DNA of 32,000 nucleotides from an uncultured Alphaproteobacteria bacterium (GCA_963777755.1 CAVZSC010000005.1:30933-62932), one strand, 5' to 3'. Shown: positions 135 through 6,065, counted from the stretch's first letter. Made by a program: numbers and translations. Notes: a model not told the origin generated them from the letters alone.

Positions 135-149
135 GAACAAACCATGAAC
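135..149 (+). promoter_or_regulatory. SOS (LexA) box of the alphaproteobacterial GAAC-N7-GAAC type, upstream of imuA
   Basis: Read directly: GAAC(135-138) aaaccat GAAC(146-149). The GAAC-N7-GAAC direct repeat (GTTC-N7-GTTC on the other strand) is the established LexA operator of Rhizobiales/Rhodobacterales. imuA-imuB-dnaE2 cassettes are classic LexA regulon members. Only one copy seen; no binding data. Confidence 0.7.
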
Positions 150-170
150 ATAAACCCATCGGAGATCGCC

Positions 171-1013
171 ATGCGAGCCTCTGCGGCCGCGAACGGCTGG
201 GCCGCACACGGCTGGGCCACGGATGGCCTGGGCGCGCTCAAACGCCAGATCGCCGCGATCGAAGGCGCGCAGGCGACCTGCGAGGATACACGCGCGCTGC
301 CGTTGGGTATCACCGGCGTCGACGCGGCGCTGGGCGGCGGCCTCAAACTCGGCGCAACCCATGAGATCGCGCCGGCCAGCCCGCTCCATCGCGGCGCCAC
401 CTTCGCCTTCGCGCTGGGGCTAGCCTGCCAGGCGTGCAAACATGGCCACGCCGACACGGTGGTGTGGATCGAGACGCCGTTCGCGGCCGCCGAGACCGGC
501 AGGCCTTATGGCATCGGCCTCGAGAGCTTTGGGCTTGCGCTCCCACATGTGCTCGTCGTGCGCGTGTCGCAGCCGATCGATGCCCTATGGGCGATGGAGG
601 AGGCGCTTCTCTGCCGCGGCGTCGCGGCGGTCATCGCCGAGGTGACGGAAGAGCTCGCGCTCACCGCGTCACGTCGCCTCTCGCTCGCCGTTCGCCACGG
701 CGGCGGATTGGGCCTTCTGGTGCGCCATCGCGTCTCGCCGCTGCCGCACGCCGTGCTCACGCGATGGCAGGTCGCAGCCGCCCGCAGCCCCCCCGACGCC
801 CATGGCGGCCTCGGAGCTGCGGCCTTCGACCTCTCGCTCACCAAGAACCGCCATGGCCCATGCGGCCGCTGGACCATCCTGTGGGACCATCATGAACGCC
901 TCTTCGTCGACCCGGCGCTATCTGTCGATGTGGCTCAGGTGGCTTTCGACCGACCGGATCGCCCGCGCTTGCACGCTGGGCGCTCACGCGCCGGGCGCCT
1001 ACGCGCCGGATGA
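171..1013 (+). CDS. imuA: ImuA, RecA-fold accessory protein of the SOS mutagenesis cassette
   Basis: Same frame as ORF-track 144..1013. I prefer ATG 171 because GGAGA (161-165) lies 5 nt upstream. ATG 144 has no SD and sits inside the LexA box. It is the first gene of a cassette directly followed by imuB and dnaE2. The 3' end overlaps imuB by 122 nt. Confidence 0.8.
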   Translation: MRASAAANGWAAHGWATDGLGALKRQIAAIEGAQATCEDTRALPLGITGVDAALGGGLKLGATHEIAPASPLHRGATFAFALGLACQACKHGHADTVVWIETPFAAAETGRPYGIGLESFGLALPHVLVVRVSQPIDALWAMEEALLCRGVAAVIAEVTEELALTASRRLSLAVRHGGGLGLLVRHRVSPLPHAVLTRWQVAAARSPPDAHGGLGAAAFDLSLTKNRHGPCGRWTILWDHHERLFVDPALSVDVAQVAFDRPDRPRLHAGRSRAGRLRAG

Positions 1014-2484
1014 TGCGCTGGTGGTGGCCGCGCCGATCAAGTCGGCGCTGCGCCTCACGGCGGTGAACGCAGTGGCTTCAGCCCTCGGGCTGAAGCCCGG
1101 CATGGCGCTGGCCGACGCGCGCGCCATGCATCCGCGGCTCAAGGCGGTCGACGCCGATCCGCTCGCCGACCGGCAATTCCTCGAAGCCGTCGCCGACTGG
1201 TGCGACCGCTATACGCCGCTCGTCGGGCTGCATCCCCCCGACGGCTTGATCCTCGACATTTCCGGCTGTGCGCATCTGTTCGGCGGCGAGGTCCGCCTCT
1301 GCGGCGACCTCGTGCGCCGCCTGCGCCTATGCGGTGTTCAGGCACGCGCCGCTGTCGCCGACACCGTCGGCTGCGCCTGGGCGATGGCGCATTACGGCGA
1401 CGACGGCTGCATCATCCCGCCCGGCGTTGCGCGCGACGTGCTTGCTCCTCTGCCGGTTGCTGCCCTGCGGCTGGCGCCCGACACCGTGATGTTGCTCGGC
1501 GAGGTCGGCTTGAAACGCGTGGCCGACCTGCTCGATCGTCCACGCGCCGCGCTGACCGCCCGCTTCGGCGCCGAGCTGATCTGGCGCCTCGACCAGGCCT
1601 TAGGGCGCGACGACGAGTCGATTACGCCGCGTCGGCCCCTGCCCTGCTACGTCGCCGAGCAGCGCTTCGCCGATCCGATCGCGCTCGAGCGCGACGTGCG
1701 CGGCACCATCGGGCGGCTCGGACAGCGCGTCGAGCGCACGCTGACGCAGCACGGCGAAGGGGCGCGGCTCCTCGAAATCGCCCTGTACCGGGTCGACGGG
1801 AAGGTGCTGCGGCTCTCGGCCGCCACCAGCCGGGCGATCCGCGCCGCCGCATTGATGCGCCGCCTGTTCGCCGAGCGCCTGACCGCGCTCGGCGACGAGC
1901 ACGATCCCGGCTTCGGTTTCGACATGATCCGCCTCTCGGTCGTCGTCGCGGAGCGGCTCGATGACGTGCAGACCGGATTTGGCGCAGGCGTTGCCGGCGC
2001 CGGCACGCCCGACCACCGGGAAGAGCTCGCCCAGCTGGTCGACCGGCTCGGCGCACGCCTCGGCTTTCGTTGCGTGCTGCGCATCGCGCCGCACGACACG
2101 CATATTCCGGAATTCGCCGCGGTCGAGGTGCGGGCCGACGACGGACGGGCAGAGGATGACTCGTCCGTCGAGCGTCCTGCGCCGCTCATGCTCCGTCCCA
2201 TAAAACTGTTCGCCCGGCCCGAGCCGATCGAAGCGGTGGCGGAAGTGCCCGACGGCCCGCCCGTGCGCTTCCGCTGGCGCCATGTGCTGCACGAGGTGGC
2301 GGCGGCCGAGGGACCCGAGCGTCTCGCCATGGAATGGTGGCGCGACGATGCCGGCCGCACGCTGACACGCGATTATTTCCGCATCGAAAGCCGCGAGGGC
2401 GCACGCTTCTGGCTCTATCGCGAAGGCCTCTACACGCGCGAGGTCGCGCAGCCGCGCTGGTTCCTGCACGGATTGTTCGGATGA
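892..2484 (+). CDS. imuB: ImuB, Y-family DNA polymerase-like protein
   Basis: N-terminus MNASSSTRRYLSMWLRWLSTDR matches the conserved RRYLSLWLP.W.TDR start of ImuB. ATG 892 is the only ATG upstream of that motif within ORF 802..2484. Stop TGA 2482-2484 overlaps the dnaE2 ATG (ATGA). Confidence 0.88.
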   Translation: MNASSSTRRYLSMWLRWLSTDRIARACTLGAHAPGAYAPDDALVVAAPIKSALRLTAVNAVASALGLKPGMALADARAMHPRLKAVDADPLADRQFLEAVADWCDRYTPLVGLHPPDGLILDISGCAHLFGGEVRLCGDLVRRLRLCGVQARAAVADTVGCAWAMAHYGDDGCIIPPGVARDVLAPLPVAALRLAPDTVMLLGEVGLKRVADLLDRPRAALTARFGAELIWRLDQALGRDDESITPRRPLPCYVAEQRFADPIALERDVRGTIGRLGQRVERTLTQHGEGARLLEIALYRVDGKVLRLSAATSRAIRAAALMRRLFAERLTALGDEHDPGFGFDMIRLSVVVAERLDDVQTGFGAGVAGAGTPDHREELAQLVDRLGARLGFRCVLRIAPHDTHIPEFAAVEVRADDGRAEDDSSVERPAPLMLRPIKLFARPEPIEAVAEVPDGPPVRFRWRHVLHEVAAAEGPERLAMEWWRDDAGRTLTRDYFRIESREGARFWLYREGLYTREVAQPRWFLHGLFG

Positions 2485-5400
2485 CCTGCGCCGAGCTCGC
2501 CGTCACCACCAATTTCTCCTTCCTGCGCGGCGCCTCGCATCCGGAGGAGCTGGTGACCCGCGCCAAGGCGCTCGGGCTTTCCGGGCTCGGCATCACCGAC
2601 CGCAACACGGTGGCGGGCGTCGTGCGCGCCCATGTGGCGGCCAAGGAAGCAGGCCTGAGGCTCGCGGTCGGCGCGCGCCTCGTCTTCGCCGACGGCACGC
2701 CCGATATCCTCGCCTATCCGCGGGATCGCGTCGCCTGGGGGCGGCTCACGCGTCTGCTCTCGCTCGGCAAGCTGCGCACCGACAAGGGCGAATGCATTCT
2801 TCGCATCGACGACCTGCTGGCGCACGTCGAGGGGCTCAACCTCGTGGTGATGCCGGGAGTTTTGGTCACCTCTTCCCGCTTGCCAGGGGAGAGGGTGACG
2901 TCCCTCCTTCGCACCATGCGTACCATGGCGCCGCGCGCGGTGTGGCTTGCGGCCAGCATGCTCTATCGCGGCGACGATGCGCGCCGCCTGGCCCGGCTCA
3001 AGGCGATTGCCGCGGAAGCGAGCGTGCCGCTGATCGCCGTCGGGGATGTGCTCTATCATGTGCCCGAGCGCCGGCCGCTGCAGGACGTCGTCACCTGCAT
3101 CCGCGAGCACGTGACGATCGATCAGGCCGGCCGGCGGCTCGAAGCCAATGCCGAGCGCCACCTGAAAGCGCCGGAGGAGATGGCTCGGCTGTTCCGCGCC
3201 GCGCCGAACGCGCTCGCCGAGACCGAGCGGCTGATCGAGCGTTGCGGCTTCTCGCTCGATGCGCTCAAGACAACCGAATATCCCGACGAGACGCGTCAGG
3301 GCTATGCGACGCCGCAGGACGCGCTCGTCGCCTTCGCGGAGGAGGGCGTCGCTAAGCGCTATCCGGGCGAAATTCCTGCCAAGGTCCGCCATGCCCTGAA
3401 CGAAGAGCTCAGACTGATCGGCGAGCTCGGCTACGCGCCGTTCTTCCTTACCGTGCATGAGATCGTCCGCTTCGCCCGTTCCCAAGGCATCCTGTGCCAG
3501 GGGCGCGGCTCGGCAGCGAACTCGGTCATCTGCTATTGCCTCGGCATCACCGAGGTCGATCCCGATCGCATCGACCTGTTGTTCGAGCGCTTCGTCTCGG
3601 CCGAGCGGCGCGAGCCGCCCGACATCGACGTCGATTTCGAGCATGAGCGGCGTGAAGAGGTGATCCAGCACATCTATCGGCAATATGGCCGCGAGCGCGC
3701 CGGCCTCGCCGCCACCGTGATCTGCTACCGCGGCCGCAGCGCCATCCGCGAGGTCGGCAAGGCGTTCGGCCTCTCCGGCGACACGATCGGCGCGCTCGCC
3801 GGCACCCTGTGGGGCTGGTCGATGCAGGGCGTCACGGAAAACGAGGCGCAGCGGGTCGGGCTCGACGCCACCGATCCGCGGCTCGCCAAGGCGATCGCGC
3901 TCGCCCGCGAGCTGAGCGGCTTCCCGCGCCATCTCTCCCAGCATGTCGGCGGCTTCGTCATCACCCGCTCGCGCCTCGACGAGGTGGTGCCGATCGAGAA
4001 CGCCGCCATGGAGGAGCGCACCGTCATCGAGTGGGACAAGGACGACCTCAACGAAGTGGGCCTGCTCAAGGTCGACGTGCTCGGGCTTGGCATGCTGTCC
4101 TGCCTGCGCCGGTCGTTCGATCTCTTGCGTGCGCACTATGGCGAGACGCGCACACTGTCCGTGCAGGACGAGGATCCGGCGGTCTACGACATGATCAAGC
4201 GCGCCGACACGATCGGCGTGTTCCAGATCGAGAGCCGCGCGCAGATGTCGATGCTGCCGCGGCTGCGCCCTGACAAATTCTACGATCTCGTCATCGAGGT
4301 CGCCATCGTGCGGCCGGGACCGATCCAGGGCGACATGGTGCATCCCTATCTGCGCCGCCGGCAGGGCCTCGAGCCGGTCAACTACGAATCCGCCGAACTG
4401 GAGGCGGTGCTGAAGAAGACGCTCGGCGTGCCGCTGTTCCAGGAGCAGGCGATGCGCATCGCCATCGTGGCGGCAGGCTTCACGCCCGCCGAGGCGGACA
4501 AGCTGCGGCGCGCCATGGCGACCTTCAAGCGGGTCGGCACCATCGCCTACTTTCGCGACAAGCTGGTCGACGGCATGGTGGCGAAAGGCTACCGGCGCGA
4601 GTTTGCCGAGCGCTGCTTCAGCCAGATCGAGGGCTTTGGCGAGTACGGCTTCCCCGAGAGCCATGCGGCGAGCTTCGCCAACCTGGTCTACGCCTCGGCC
4701 TGGATCAAATGCCGCTACCCGGATGTGTTCGCCGCCGCCCTCCTCAACAGCCAGCCCATGGGCTTCTACGCGCCGGCGCAGATCGTGCGCGACGCCCAGG
4801 ACCATGGGGTCGAGATCCGTCCGGTGGACGTGAATTTCTCCTGCTGGGACTGCACGCTGGAGGATTGCTCCATCCCTCCCCCGCAGGGGGAGGGTGGCCG
4901 TGCGAAGCACGGCCGGGTGGGGCTCCACCCTCGCCACGCCGAAATGCAGGGCGACATCCGCACCACCCGCGCGGTGCGGCTCGGCTTCCGCCAGATCAGC
5001 GGCGCATCCGAGGAGCCGTGGAAGGTGATCGAGCAGGTGCGTAGGGCTTCTGTCGTCGAGCAGGCAGGAAGTGAACCGCCTCGCGCGCGTCTTGCGTTCC
5101 CTCCCCCCTTGTGGGGGAGGGACAGGGAGGGGGGTGCGCCGCAAACTCTGAGTCCAGAAGTAGCCCCCCTCCCCAACCCTCCCCCACAAGGGGGGAGGGA
5201 GCAGGCAGAGCAAGTCGCACCGCCTGCGCCAAACCTCACGCCCCCCTCCCCGCGCAGAGAGACAAAATTCGACTCCATCCGCGATTTCTGGCTGCGCACG
5301 CGGCTGCCGCCGTCGGCGCTGGAGCGCCTCGCTGCCGCCGATGCGTTCCGCTCGCTCGGGCTCGACCGTCGCGCCGCCTTATGGGCGGTGCGCGCGCTAC

Positions 5401-6065
5401 GCCGCACCGGCGACAAGGACGACCTGCCGCTGTTCGCTGCGGTTGCGATGCCGGAGCTCGAGCCCGATGCGGCCCTGCCGCCGATGCCGCTCGGCGAGCA
5501 TGTGATCGCGGACTATCGCCACCTGCATCTCTCGCTGAAAGCGCATCCGGTCTCCTTCCTGCGCGGCGAGCTCGATCGCCGCGGCATCGTGCGCCACGAG
5601 TGCCTCGGGACGCTCTCGTCCGGCCGCGTCGTCACGATCGCCGGCCTGGTGCTGGTGCGCCAGCGGCCCGGCAGCGCCCAGGGGGTGATCTTCATGACCC
5701 TCGAGGACGAGACCGGCATCGCCAACACCATCGTGTGGCCAAAGGTGTTCGAGATCTTCCGTCCCGTAGTGCTCGGCGCGCGGCTCATCAGCGTCACCGG
5801 CAAGCTGCAGAACGAGCAGGGCGTGATCCACGTGGTGGCGCACCGGCTCGACGACCTCTCGCACCTGCTGCGCCGCCTCGCCGACACGACGTTCACCGAG
5901 GCGCTCGCCCATGTGGACGAAGTCCGCCGCCCGATCGACGACCGTACCCCGCGCCAGGGCGCCCGCAAGCTCGCCCGGCTGATCAAGGAGGAGCCGGGCC
6001 TGCTCGGCGAATTCGCCCCCGCCTCGCCCGCCGCCGTCATGCCCAAGGGGCGGAATTTTCATTGA
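2481..6065 (+). CDS. dnaE2: DnaE2, error-prone DNA polymerase III alpha-subunit paralogue (1194 aa)
   Basis: Starts [24 protein letters not shown] (PHP domain). Pol III alpha core motifs are present: [25 protein letters not shown]. There is a C-terminal OB-fold region and the protein ends GRNFH. ATG 2481 is coupled to the imuB stop. The ORF-track start 2334 is an upstream extension. Confidence 0.95.
2865..2899. repeat. Degenerate GC-rich palindromic (REP-like) unit inside dnaE2
   Basis: gtcacctcttccc gcttgcca ggggagagggtgac: arms pair over about 12 of 13 positions with one bulge. The sequence style (ccctc.../...gaggg) matches the units at 4874-4930 and 5097-5201. Encodes ...[13 protein letters not shown]... 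Confidence 0.4.
4874..4930. repeat. Triple-hairpin GC-rich palindromic unit, in frame within dnaE2
   Basis: Three consecutive perfect stems read directly. ccctccccc-gca-gggggaggg (4874-4894); ggccgtgc-gaa-gcacggcc (4896-4914); gggtgg-ggct-ccaccc (4915-4930). As delimited, 57 nt = 19 codons, encoding [19 protein letters not shown]. Confidence 0.75.
5097..5201. repeat. MITE-like composite: two 39-nt inverted arms, each itself a hairpin, around a 27-nt core, in frame within dnaE2
   Basis: Arm 5097-5135 (ttccctccccccttgtgggggagggacagggaggggggt) matches the reverse complement of 5163-5201 at 34 of 39 positions by hand alignment. Each arm holds a ccctccccc/gggggaggg hairpin (5099-5121 and 5177-5199). 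As delimited, 105 nt = 35 codons. Encodes [12 protein letters not shown]...[10 protein letters not shown]. Confidence 0.75.

Follow-up and report, generated by a model that had tools for sequence, protein, structure and literature searches.

How does a DNA polymerase gene come to carry, within its reading frame, palindromic repeats that otherwise lie mostly between genes, and do these repeats serve the gene in any way? The question is raised by a dnaE2 gene in a 32,000-nt stretch of the genome of an uncultured Alphaproteobacteria bacterium (GCA_963777755.1, CAVZSC010000005.1:30933-62932; hereafter the window). The genome comprises 10.28 Mb in 45 contigs, at 66.4% GC. Two surface loops of the encoded DnaE2 contain repetitive extragenic palindromic (REP) units, a single unit at site 1 and an inverted doublet at site 2, and these are very probably tolerated selfish or neutral passengers, not functional parts of the polymerase. 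A first-pass annotation of the window had reported palindromic units lying in frame within a 1194-aa open reading frame (ORF); the hairpins, the ORF and the peptides quoted from its translation were all recovered here.

Two inserts in the DnaE2 reading frame

Both inserts are delimited by an alignment of the C-terminal halves of 28 DnaE2 orthologues from related genomes. At site 1, the segment between the LE and LHPRH motifs is 8-12 residues long in uninserted relatives and 20 residues long in this DnaE2. At site 2, the stretch from RLG to FDSxRD counts 103 residues here and exactly 31 in nine close relatives, among them the two same-genus genomes. The short loops of the orthologues at both sites bear out the earlier suggestion that the insertions are lineage-specific. 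Site 2 lies within the HHH_6 domain, between VR and FDSxRD, where the relatives have three codons reading G-x-G. Pfam matched HHH_6 in two pieces, which was the first sign of an insertion within this domain.

The site-1 insert, element A (Table 1), consists of exactly 20 codons between LE and LHPRH, in place of the native eight-codon loop after WDCTLE. The 22 genomic copies aligned with it have a common left end (gCTTGCTCCAT) and a common right end (GGGTGGGG). The unit had first been delimited as 57 nt (4874-4930); the features described in it are present at those positions, and its extent is corrected to 60 nt (4863-4922). A predicted RNA fold places two hairpins inside an outer stem, and the region 4860-4935 folds at -50 kcal/mol (z -3.9 versus shuffles). 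The copy at C5:216106 has an identical hairpin 2 module, and that at C34:473451 a nearly identical one (coordinates prefixed C refer to contigs of this genome, G000). The third hairpin of the first-pass annotation could not be retained as part of the unit, as it partly consists of CTCCACCC, the native, conserved Leu-His-Pro coding sequence. Element A is open in all six reading frames.

The site-2 insert is built around a doublet of two REP units, resembling a REPIN, a REP doublet forming a hairpin as reportedly described by Bertels and Rainey in 2011. The inverted arms seen earlier are confirmed, being 92% complementary and 29 nt apart; the 105-nt composite assigned to them is replaced by a doublet of about 131 nt within an insert of 225 nt. 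In blastn searches of this genome and 25 relatives, the matches span about 5084-5222, and every one falls within about 5078-5232. It contains perfect hairpins at 5098-5122 (10 bp) and 5177-5199 (9 bp), and the region 5040-5264 has a predicted fold of -128.1 kcal/mol (z -6.35 versus shuffles). Upstream of the doublet lies a partial second copy of its right-end module, whose local alignment score against 5199-5229 was attained in none of 2000 shuffles. Downstream, 12 nt from the start of the right arm (5163-5174) recur exactly and are, we infer, the remnant of a further unit. Because they hold this partial end-module copy and the 12-nt arm fragment, the flanks of the doublet are read as decayed units, and site 2 as a small cluster of which one unit is intact.

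The inserts lack the codon-position pattern of the surrounding gene. GC content at the first, second and third codon positions (GC1/2/3) is 0.70/0.45/0.88 for dnaE2 and ranges over 0.70-0.75/0.45-0.47/0.88-0.91 in native dnaE2 sequence overall. The site-2 insert has values of 0.76/0.65/0.63, compared with 0.72-0.75/0.46-0.47/0.90-0.91 in its native flanks, and its non-repeat parts have likewise lost the pattern; the values for element A are 0.80/0.65/0.80. In an AlphaFold2 model of the C-terminal 546 residues of DnaE2, made with the 28-sequence alignment, the predicted local distance difference test (pLDDT) score stays under 50 over model residues 153-163 and 217-275 and is 84-96 in the flanking strands and helices. 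The low-scoring stretches correspond to residues 850-860 and 914-972, numbered from the start of the frame at base 2334, and both inserts are thus predicted to be disordered. An alignment with Thermus Pol III alpha takes in the fingers as far as DVNxS, breaks off there and starts again with the FxSxxDF helix, which places both sites in loops of the beta-binding/(HhH)2 domain.

Table 1. Features of the window and other host genes of the repeats (positions count from the first letter of the window unless a contig is named)
Feature	Position	Strand	Basis
GAAC-N7-GAAC LexA (SOS) box	135..149	+	upstream of imuA; read directly from sequence
imuA-like ORF, operon gene 1	144..1013	+	ORF list
imuB, Y-family polymerase-like	802..2484	+	Pfam IMS (PF00817) and DUF6504
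dnaE2 (imuC), intact, 1194 codons	2481..6065	+	Pfam, motifs, ATGA overlap
Element A, one 60-nt three-stem REP unit	4863..4922	+	22 aligned genomic copies
Hairpin 1 of element A	4874..4894	.	perfect 9-bp stem, loop GCA
Hairpin 2 of element A	4896..4914	.	perfect 8-bp stem, loop GAA
Site-2 insert, 225 nt (75 codons)	5043..5267	+	orthologue alignment; 3 codons in relatives
Partial second copy of doublet right-end module	5058..5086	+	imperfect direct repeat with 5199-5229
REPIN-like inverted doublet, two REP units, ~131 nt, 29-nt spacer	~5088..5218	.	8 genomic copies
Doublet left arm	5098..5134	.	37 nt, inverted repeat
Doublet right arm	5164..5200	.	37 nt, inverted repeat
12-nt exact repeat of right-arm start (5163-5174)	5240..5251	+	repeat search
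Mu-type phage portal gene, repeat read in frame	L046, C7:104378-106099		
Hydantoinase/oxoprolinase gene, repeat read in frame	L047, C7:110310-114287		
uvrA, repeat read in frame	L048, C17:34947-38051		
ATP-dependent DNA ligase gene, repeat read in frame	L049, C26:883124-885430		
Lhr helicase gene, repeat read in frame	L050, C32:570725-575221		
VIT-vWA gene, repeat read in frame	L051, C34:471869-474190		

The host gene has the characters of DnaE2/ImuC: the domain set, the catalytic motifs and the order imuA-imuB-dnaE2 under a LexA box. Pfam identified PHP, DNA_pol3_alpha, DNA_pol3_finger, HHH_6 and OB fold domains, and the catalytic Asp motifs PDIDVDF and KVDVLGLG are found in the translation. 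LexA-box-like sites occur in the whole genome at a density of 0.019 per kb. A Pfam search of the first ORF of the operon (144-1013) gave no matches, and we infer that it is imuA-like from its place ahead of imuB and dnaE2. The dnaE2 frame stays open between 2334 and 6065. Its likely start is the ATG at 2481, from which it runs for 1194 codons and which overlaps the stop of imuB in the sequence ATGA (2481-2484); the 5' extension of the frame from 2334 is probably untranslated, and the overlap suggests translational coupling of imuB and dnaE2. With an SOS box, ATGA coupling, all Pfam domains and both catalytic motifs, dnaE2 looks functional as judged from its sequence.

Perfect hairpins of 10 and 11 bp also occur in imuB, at 1074-1097 and 1868-1895. 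Both are single-copy in the genome and match none of the repeat families studied here; the first lies within an N-terminal stretch of ImuB (AVASALGLKPGMALADARA) that is taken as native.

Repeat families and their distribution

The core of both inserts, CCCTCCCCC-N(2-8)-GGGGGAGGG, occurs three times in the window (4874, 5099 and 5177), always inside dnaE2, and was not matched in 100 shuffles of the window. Genome-wide it has 49 exact sites, against one for a reversed control, and 65 near-perfect ones under a slightly relaxed pattern. Two profile hidden Markov models, searched with nhmmer, gave 114 matches in about 75 loci, with near-full copies at C5:178749-178855, C7:113296-113411 and C5:216078-216135. 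The units are therefore repeated elsewhere in the genome, as the first-pass annotation had anticipated, and its description of them as usually intergenic is also upheld. A frame-consistency test, a GC3-based heuristic of our own, was passed by 8 of the ~75 loci, one of them (on C30) through a spurious antisense frame; about 89% of loci lie outside any frame-consistent ORF and about 11% are intragenic.

Two architectures were sorted from the flanks of the 65 cores. In type A units, of about 60 nt, a gCTTGCTCCAT left end is followed by the core hairpin, then by a second hairpin and finally by a GGGTGGGG tail. Type B units consist of the core hairpin and a (C/T)TAGGGAGGGGG tail and are usually paired with an inverted partner, forming a doublet of about 131 nt with a spacer of 25-30 nt (exceeded in a few copies) and conserved outer modules; eight other copies have the doublet architecture of that in dnaE2. 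Among the flanks, ...CTCCAT, ...CCGGT(C/T) or ...GCGTGCT precede the stem and (C/T)TAGGGAGGGG or TGGCGCC follow it. REPs and REPINs are defined as short (20-40 nt), GC-rich, imperfect palindromes in many copies, mostly extragenic and paired in inverted orientation, and the repeats described here show these traits. An assignment to a known RNA family was rejected, as an Rfam search returned nothing but generic miRNA hairpin models below threshold. The repeats are confined to this bacterial family: the core is present in 19 of its 24 genomes, and among 16 genomes from the other families of the order in only two, with one copy each. The nearest named relatives of this DnaE2 are found in Xanthobacteraceae metagenome-assembled genomes, Pseudorhodoplanes and Rhodoplanes.

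The doublets in dnaE2, the oxoprolinase gene and the ligase gene have in common an ACAG variant and are open in four to five of the six frames; intergenic copies in this genome are open in one to three. Over five genomes, 5 of 29 sites with the ACAG variant are intragenic, compared with 2 of 30 for (C/T)TAG. As these proportions do not differ convincingly, the idea that copies without stops form a subfamily suited to an intragenic position was rejected.

Besides dnaE2, six genes of this genome contain a repeat read in frame (Table 1), and DNA-repair genes make up four of the seven hosts. An eighth intragenic locus, C30:384685, was discarded because its frame is R/S-rich and of antisense type. 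On C17, a LexA-box-like site (GTTC-N7-GTTC) precedes uvrA, 78 nt past the stop that opens the uvrA frame (34947). The idea that all hosts belong to the SOS regulon was rejected, as such a site stands near the start only in the imuA operon and uvrA. In the ligase gene (L049, around C26:883990-884030), a 27-nt insert that itself forms a hairpin interrupts the core of the doublet right arm, one repeat thus lying inside another and both inside a gene.

Different relatives carry different units at different positions in dnaE2. Repeat units occupy site 1 in G002, a genome of the same genus, and in G005, G007, G008 and G020; G007 has one further unit in the PHP loop. In G001, also of the same genus, units lie at a third site, in the polymerase core, and in G012, G022 and G024 they follow the LPLF motif. 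Such differences in unit and position show that insertion has happened repeatedly and independently. Perfect hairpins of 9 bp or more, counted over 105 DnaE2 orthologues, have a density of 2.49 per kb in inserts and 0.076 per kb elsewhere (33-fold), and they are distributed over 17 genes and three loops. A protein search from the insert region retrieved many metagenomic DnaE2 sequences with a doublet of their own at site 2 or site 1. No close relative with the same inserts emerged from it; the best match has only 45% identity over the region and its own doublet at the same loop. Repeat-derived peptides were also retrieved in oxoprolinases, UvrA, indolepyruvate oxidoreductases, ADP-forming acetyl-CoA synthetases and leucyl-tRNA synthetases.

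At site 1 of the dnaE2 of G020, which belongs to another genus, the insert is a CGTC-type palindrome with a 17-bp perfect stem (G020:C71, L020), encoding ..VIPGRP...PRNDG.., and Bradyrhizobium DnaE2 genes have related SFRGA...PRNDD units just after FRQIDGF. In this DnaE2, an imperfect hairpin at window positions 2865-2899 with the family's GCTTGC loop lies in the PHP-domain loop after LNLVVMPG. This loop is some five residues longer than in uninserted homologues, and in other DnaE2 proteins it contains clear repeat peptides such as SPPPQAGEG and SPPPLAGEG. The 35-nt string 2865-2899 is single-copy in the genome by exact search, the only kind made, and the hairpin is plausibly a decayed repeat unit.

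Many Xanthobacteraceae oxoprolinases (P0034, P0042, P0068, P0076, P0084 and others) have a common repeat peptide of ~30-40 residues at 58-74% identity. Compared with the dnaE2 inserts, the oxoprolinase insert may be of much greater age and have been inherited more widely.

Passengers, targets or parts of the gene

We propose that two short GC-rich palindromic families with the CCCTCCCCC/GGGGGAGGG core, mostly extragenic, land widely in the genome, and that copies have been inserted into the beta-binding/(HhH)2 region of DnaE2, at two of its surface loops. On this reading, the copies survive there because the net change in length is a multiple of three and because the elements contain almost no stop codons. 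Survival would be limited to places where an insert is harmless: in frame, stop-free, in a flexible loop and in a protein needed only under stress. The inserts would then be transcribed and translated with dnaE2, as disordered Pro/Gly-rich loops of 20 and 75 residues. Of the first-pass annotation's proposal that repeats had invaded the gene and been tolerated or domesticated, invasion and tolerance are well supported.

Several results weigh against this account. The only PF01797 (Y1_Tnp) gene, the candidate for a cognate REP-associated tyrosine transposase (RAYT), is at C44:107691-108047 and has no flanking hairpins; its 3.3-kb locus contains no inverted repeats of at least 14 nt, and its contig no core. 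The stretches on either side of the doublet (5043-5087, 45 nt, and 5219-5267, 49 nt) have no other copy in the genome or in 25 relatives. In the terms of MITEs, or miniature inverted-repeat transposable elements, the doublet is itself an inverted repeat, neither insert has a clean flanking duplication, and no target-site duplication could be tied to the elements; the only candidate, the imperfect 29-31-nt direct repeat 5058-5086/5199-5229, takes in part of the element. No single independent contig spans the doublet interior (5098-5218), which rests on this assembly. Finally, dnaE2 has 3 of the 65 cores in 3.6 kb, where ~0.02 would be expected, and over five genomes 5 of 59 sampled arms lie in dnaE2; this excess may not be obviously explained by tolerance alone.

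The same enrichment would fit the alternative that the dnaE2 loops, together with other repair genes, are true integration hot spots, reached through microhomology of element ends with the target, or because transcription or repair synthesis under SOS induction makes these genes accessible while the repeats move. Different repeat units occupy site 1 in at least six genomes of one bacterial family, the host genes of this genome are mostly repair genes, LexA-box-like sites are found at dnaE2 and uvrA, and the same bias has been published, without explanation. Just downstream of element A, the native sequence CTCCACCC (CTCCATCC in G007) is similar to the element's left end, CTCCATCC, and GAGCAGG is common to the right end of the doublet and the native junction at site 2. 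However, the DNA is GC-rich and these microhomologies are only 7-8 nt long, no LexA-box-like site stands near the start of lhr, the ligase gene or the other hosts, and no mobilising enzyme was identified. The occupation of the same loops by unrelated families, as by the CGTC-type palindrome of G020 at site 1, is a better fit to a filter of selection than to one sequence-specific mechanism. We take the similarities between ends and targets, and the LexA-box sites, as hints and not as evidence of targeting, and consider hot spots of this kind unlikely. It is similarly doubtful that dnaE2, and to a lesser degree other SOS or repair genes, is a genuine preferred landing site for REPs and not merely a tolerant one. 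If it were, movement of the repeats on SOS-exposed single-stranded DNA, or microhomology between their ends and the loops, would be possible reasons, and a mechanistic link between the repeats and the mutasome gene would follow.

A second alternative is the domestication raised by the first-pass annotation, under which the hairpins or loops would now serve dnaE2, for example as an mRNA throttle, a transcript stabiliser or flexible linkers. The very stable predicted RNA structures and the fact that the same loops are hit in many lineages could be understood in this way. However, the inserts are absent in the same-genus relatives, the nearest relatives have short loops, and the inserted sequences vary between lineages. 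The inserts are also compositionally non-coding and predicted to be disordered, and the same units occur in unrelated oxoprolinase, VIT-vWA and phage portal proteins. We consider domestication very improbable, and this part of the earlier proposal is not upheld.

Assembly was checked against Logan contigs from three studies, which have zero differences across element A and both outer site-2 junctions. Those of X1, possibly the source sample, cover 4758-5096 and 5222-5500, those of X3 4948-5098 and 5218-5500, and those of X4 4800-4950 and 4948-5098. From 5096-5098 to 5218-5222 the contigs leave a gap, of the kind that unitigs show at repeats. A repeat-induced mis-join or collapse in a metagenome-like assembly, which these breaks at the edges of the unspanned doublet interior might suggest, can be dismissed as having a negligible probability, given zero-difference contigs from three studies that join unique flanks to native dnaE2 over 4758-5098 and 5218-5500, a preserved reading frame and analogous inserts in many other assemblies.

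In one rhizosphere-metagenome contig (X6), 4862 is followed by 21 other letters and then by 4971. Its source seems to be a relative whose short dnaE2 loop lacks both element A and the LHPRH stretch.

To return to the reading of the inserts as tolerated passengers, dnaE2 in this genome is neither a pseudogene nor a mis-assembly. It probably encodes a full-length, functional protein with two foreign loops.

Relation to known palindromic repeats

Intragenic REPs were catalogued by Di Nocera, De Gregorio and Rocco (2013, BMC Genomics 14:522; PMC3733652), who found many of them in replication and repair genes. Their table of hosts includes DnaE2, UvrA, ATP-dependent DNA ligase I and helicases, the DnaE2 cases being those of Opitutus terrae (residues 934-971) and Sphingomonas wittichii (residues 166-246); the intragenic REPs are whole single units, dimers or groups encoding up to ~80 residues, and the bias towards repair genes was left without explanation (PMC3733652). 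The repeats described here resemble that set in being mostly extragenic palindromes found whole inside ORFs, in the same set of hosts, and differ in the organism and the insertion loops. They likewise consist of whole units in an ORF of known function, with the frame kept and the unit absent from orthologues. Neither end tag of the GTAG and CGTC superfamilies of that study is present on these repeats, their flanks having been judged by eye. The phenomenon has been known since 2013, and the present case is a further example and no new kind of system.

Compared with REPINs, the doublet is similar in being an inverted REP pair with a short spacer that forms one long hairpin, in tens of mostly intergenic copies. 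It differs in that no RAYT-type transposase flanked by these repeats was found and in that the copy described here lies in a presumably translated frame. Rickettsia palindromic elements (RPEs), attributed to Ogata and colleagues in 2000, are said to lie in frame in protein genes and to be tolerated in surface regions. The dnaE2 inserts have in common with them that in-frame palindromic repeats are tolerated in surface regions of proteins. They differ in sequence, being unrelated, in their host, a free-living soil bacterium with a 10-Mb genome and not a reduced intracellular one, and in that only ~11% of loci are intragenic. RPEs are discussed in PMC3733652 and PMC10969869, and one in dnaE of R. 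conorii occupies residues 853-861 (PMC3733652).

To the palindromic repeats that accumulate in DnaE2 and other repair genes, the locus contributes a case whose limits are well defined and whose sites are empty in relatives of the same genus. For annotation, peptides of the PLWGR or PQGGRE type in this bacterial family mark repeat DNA. Across the Alphaproteobacteria, three particular beta-binding/HhH loops take such inserts repeatedly.

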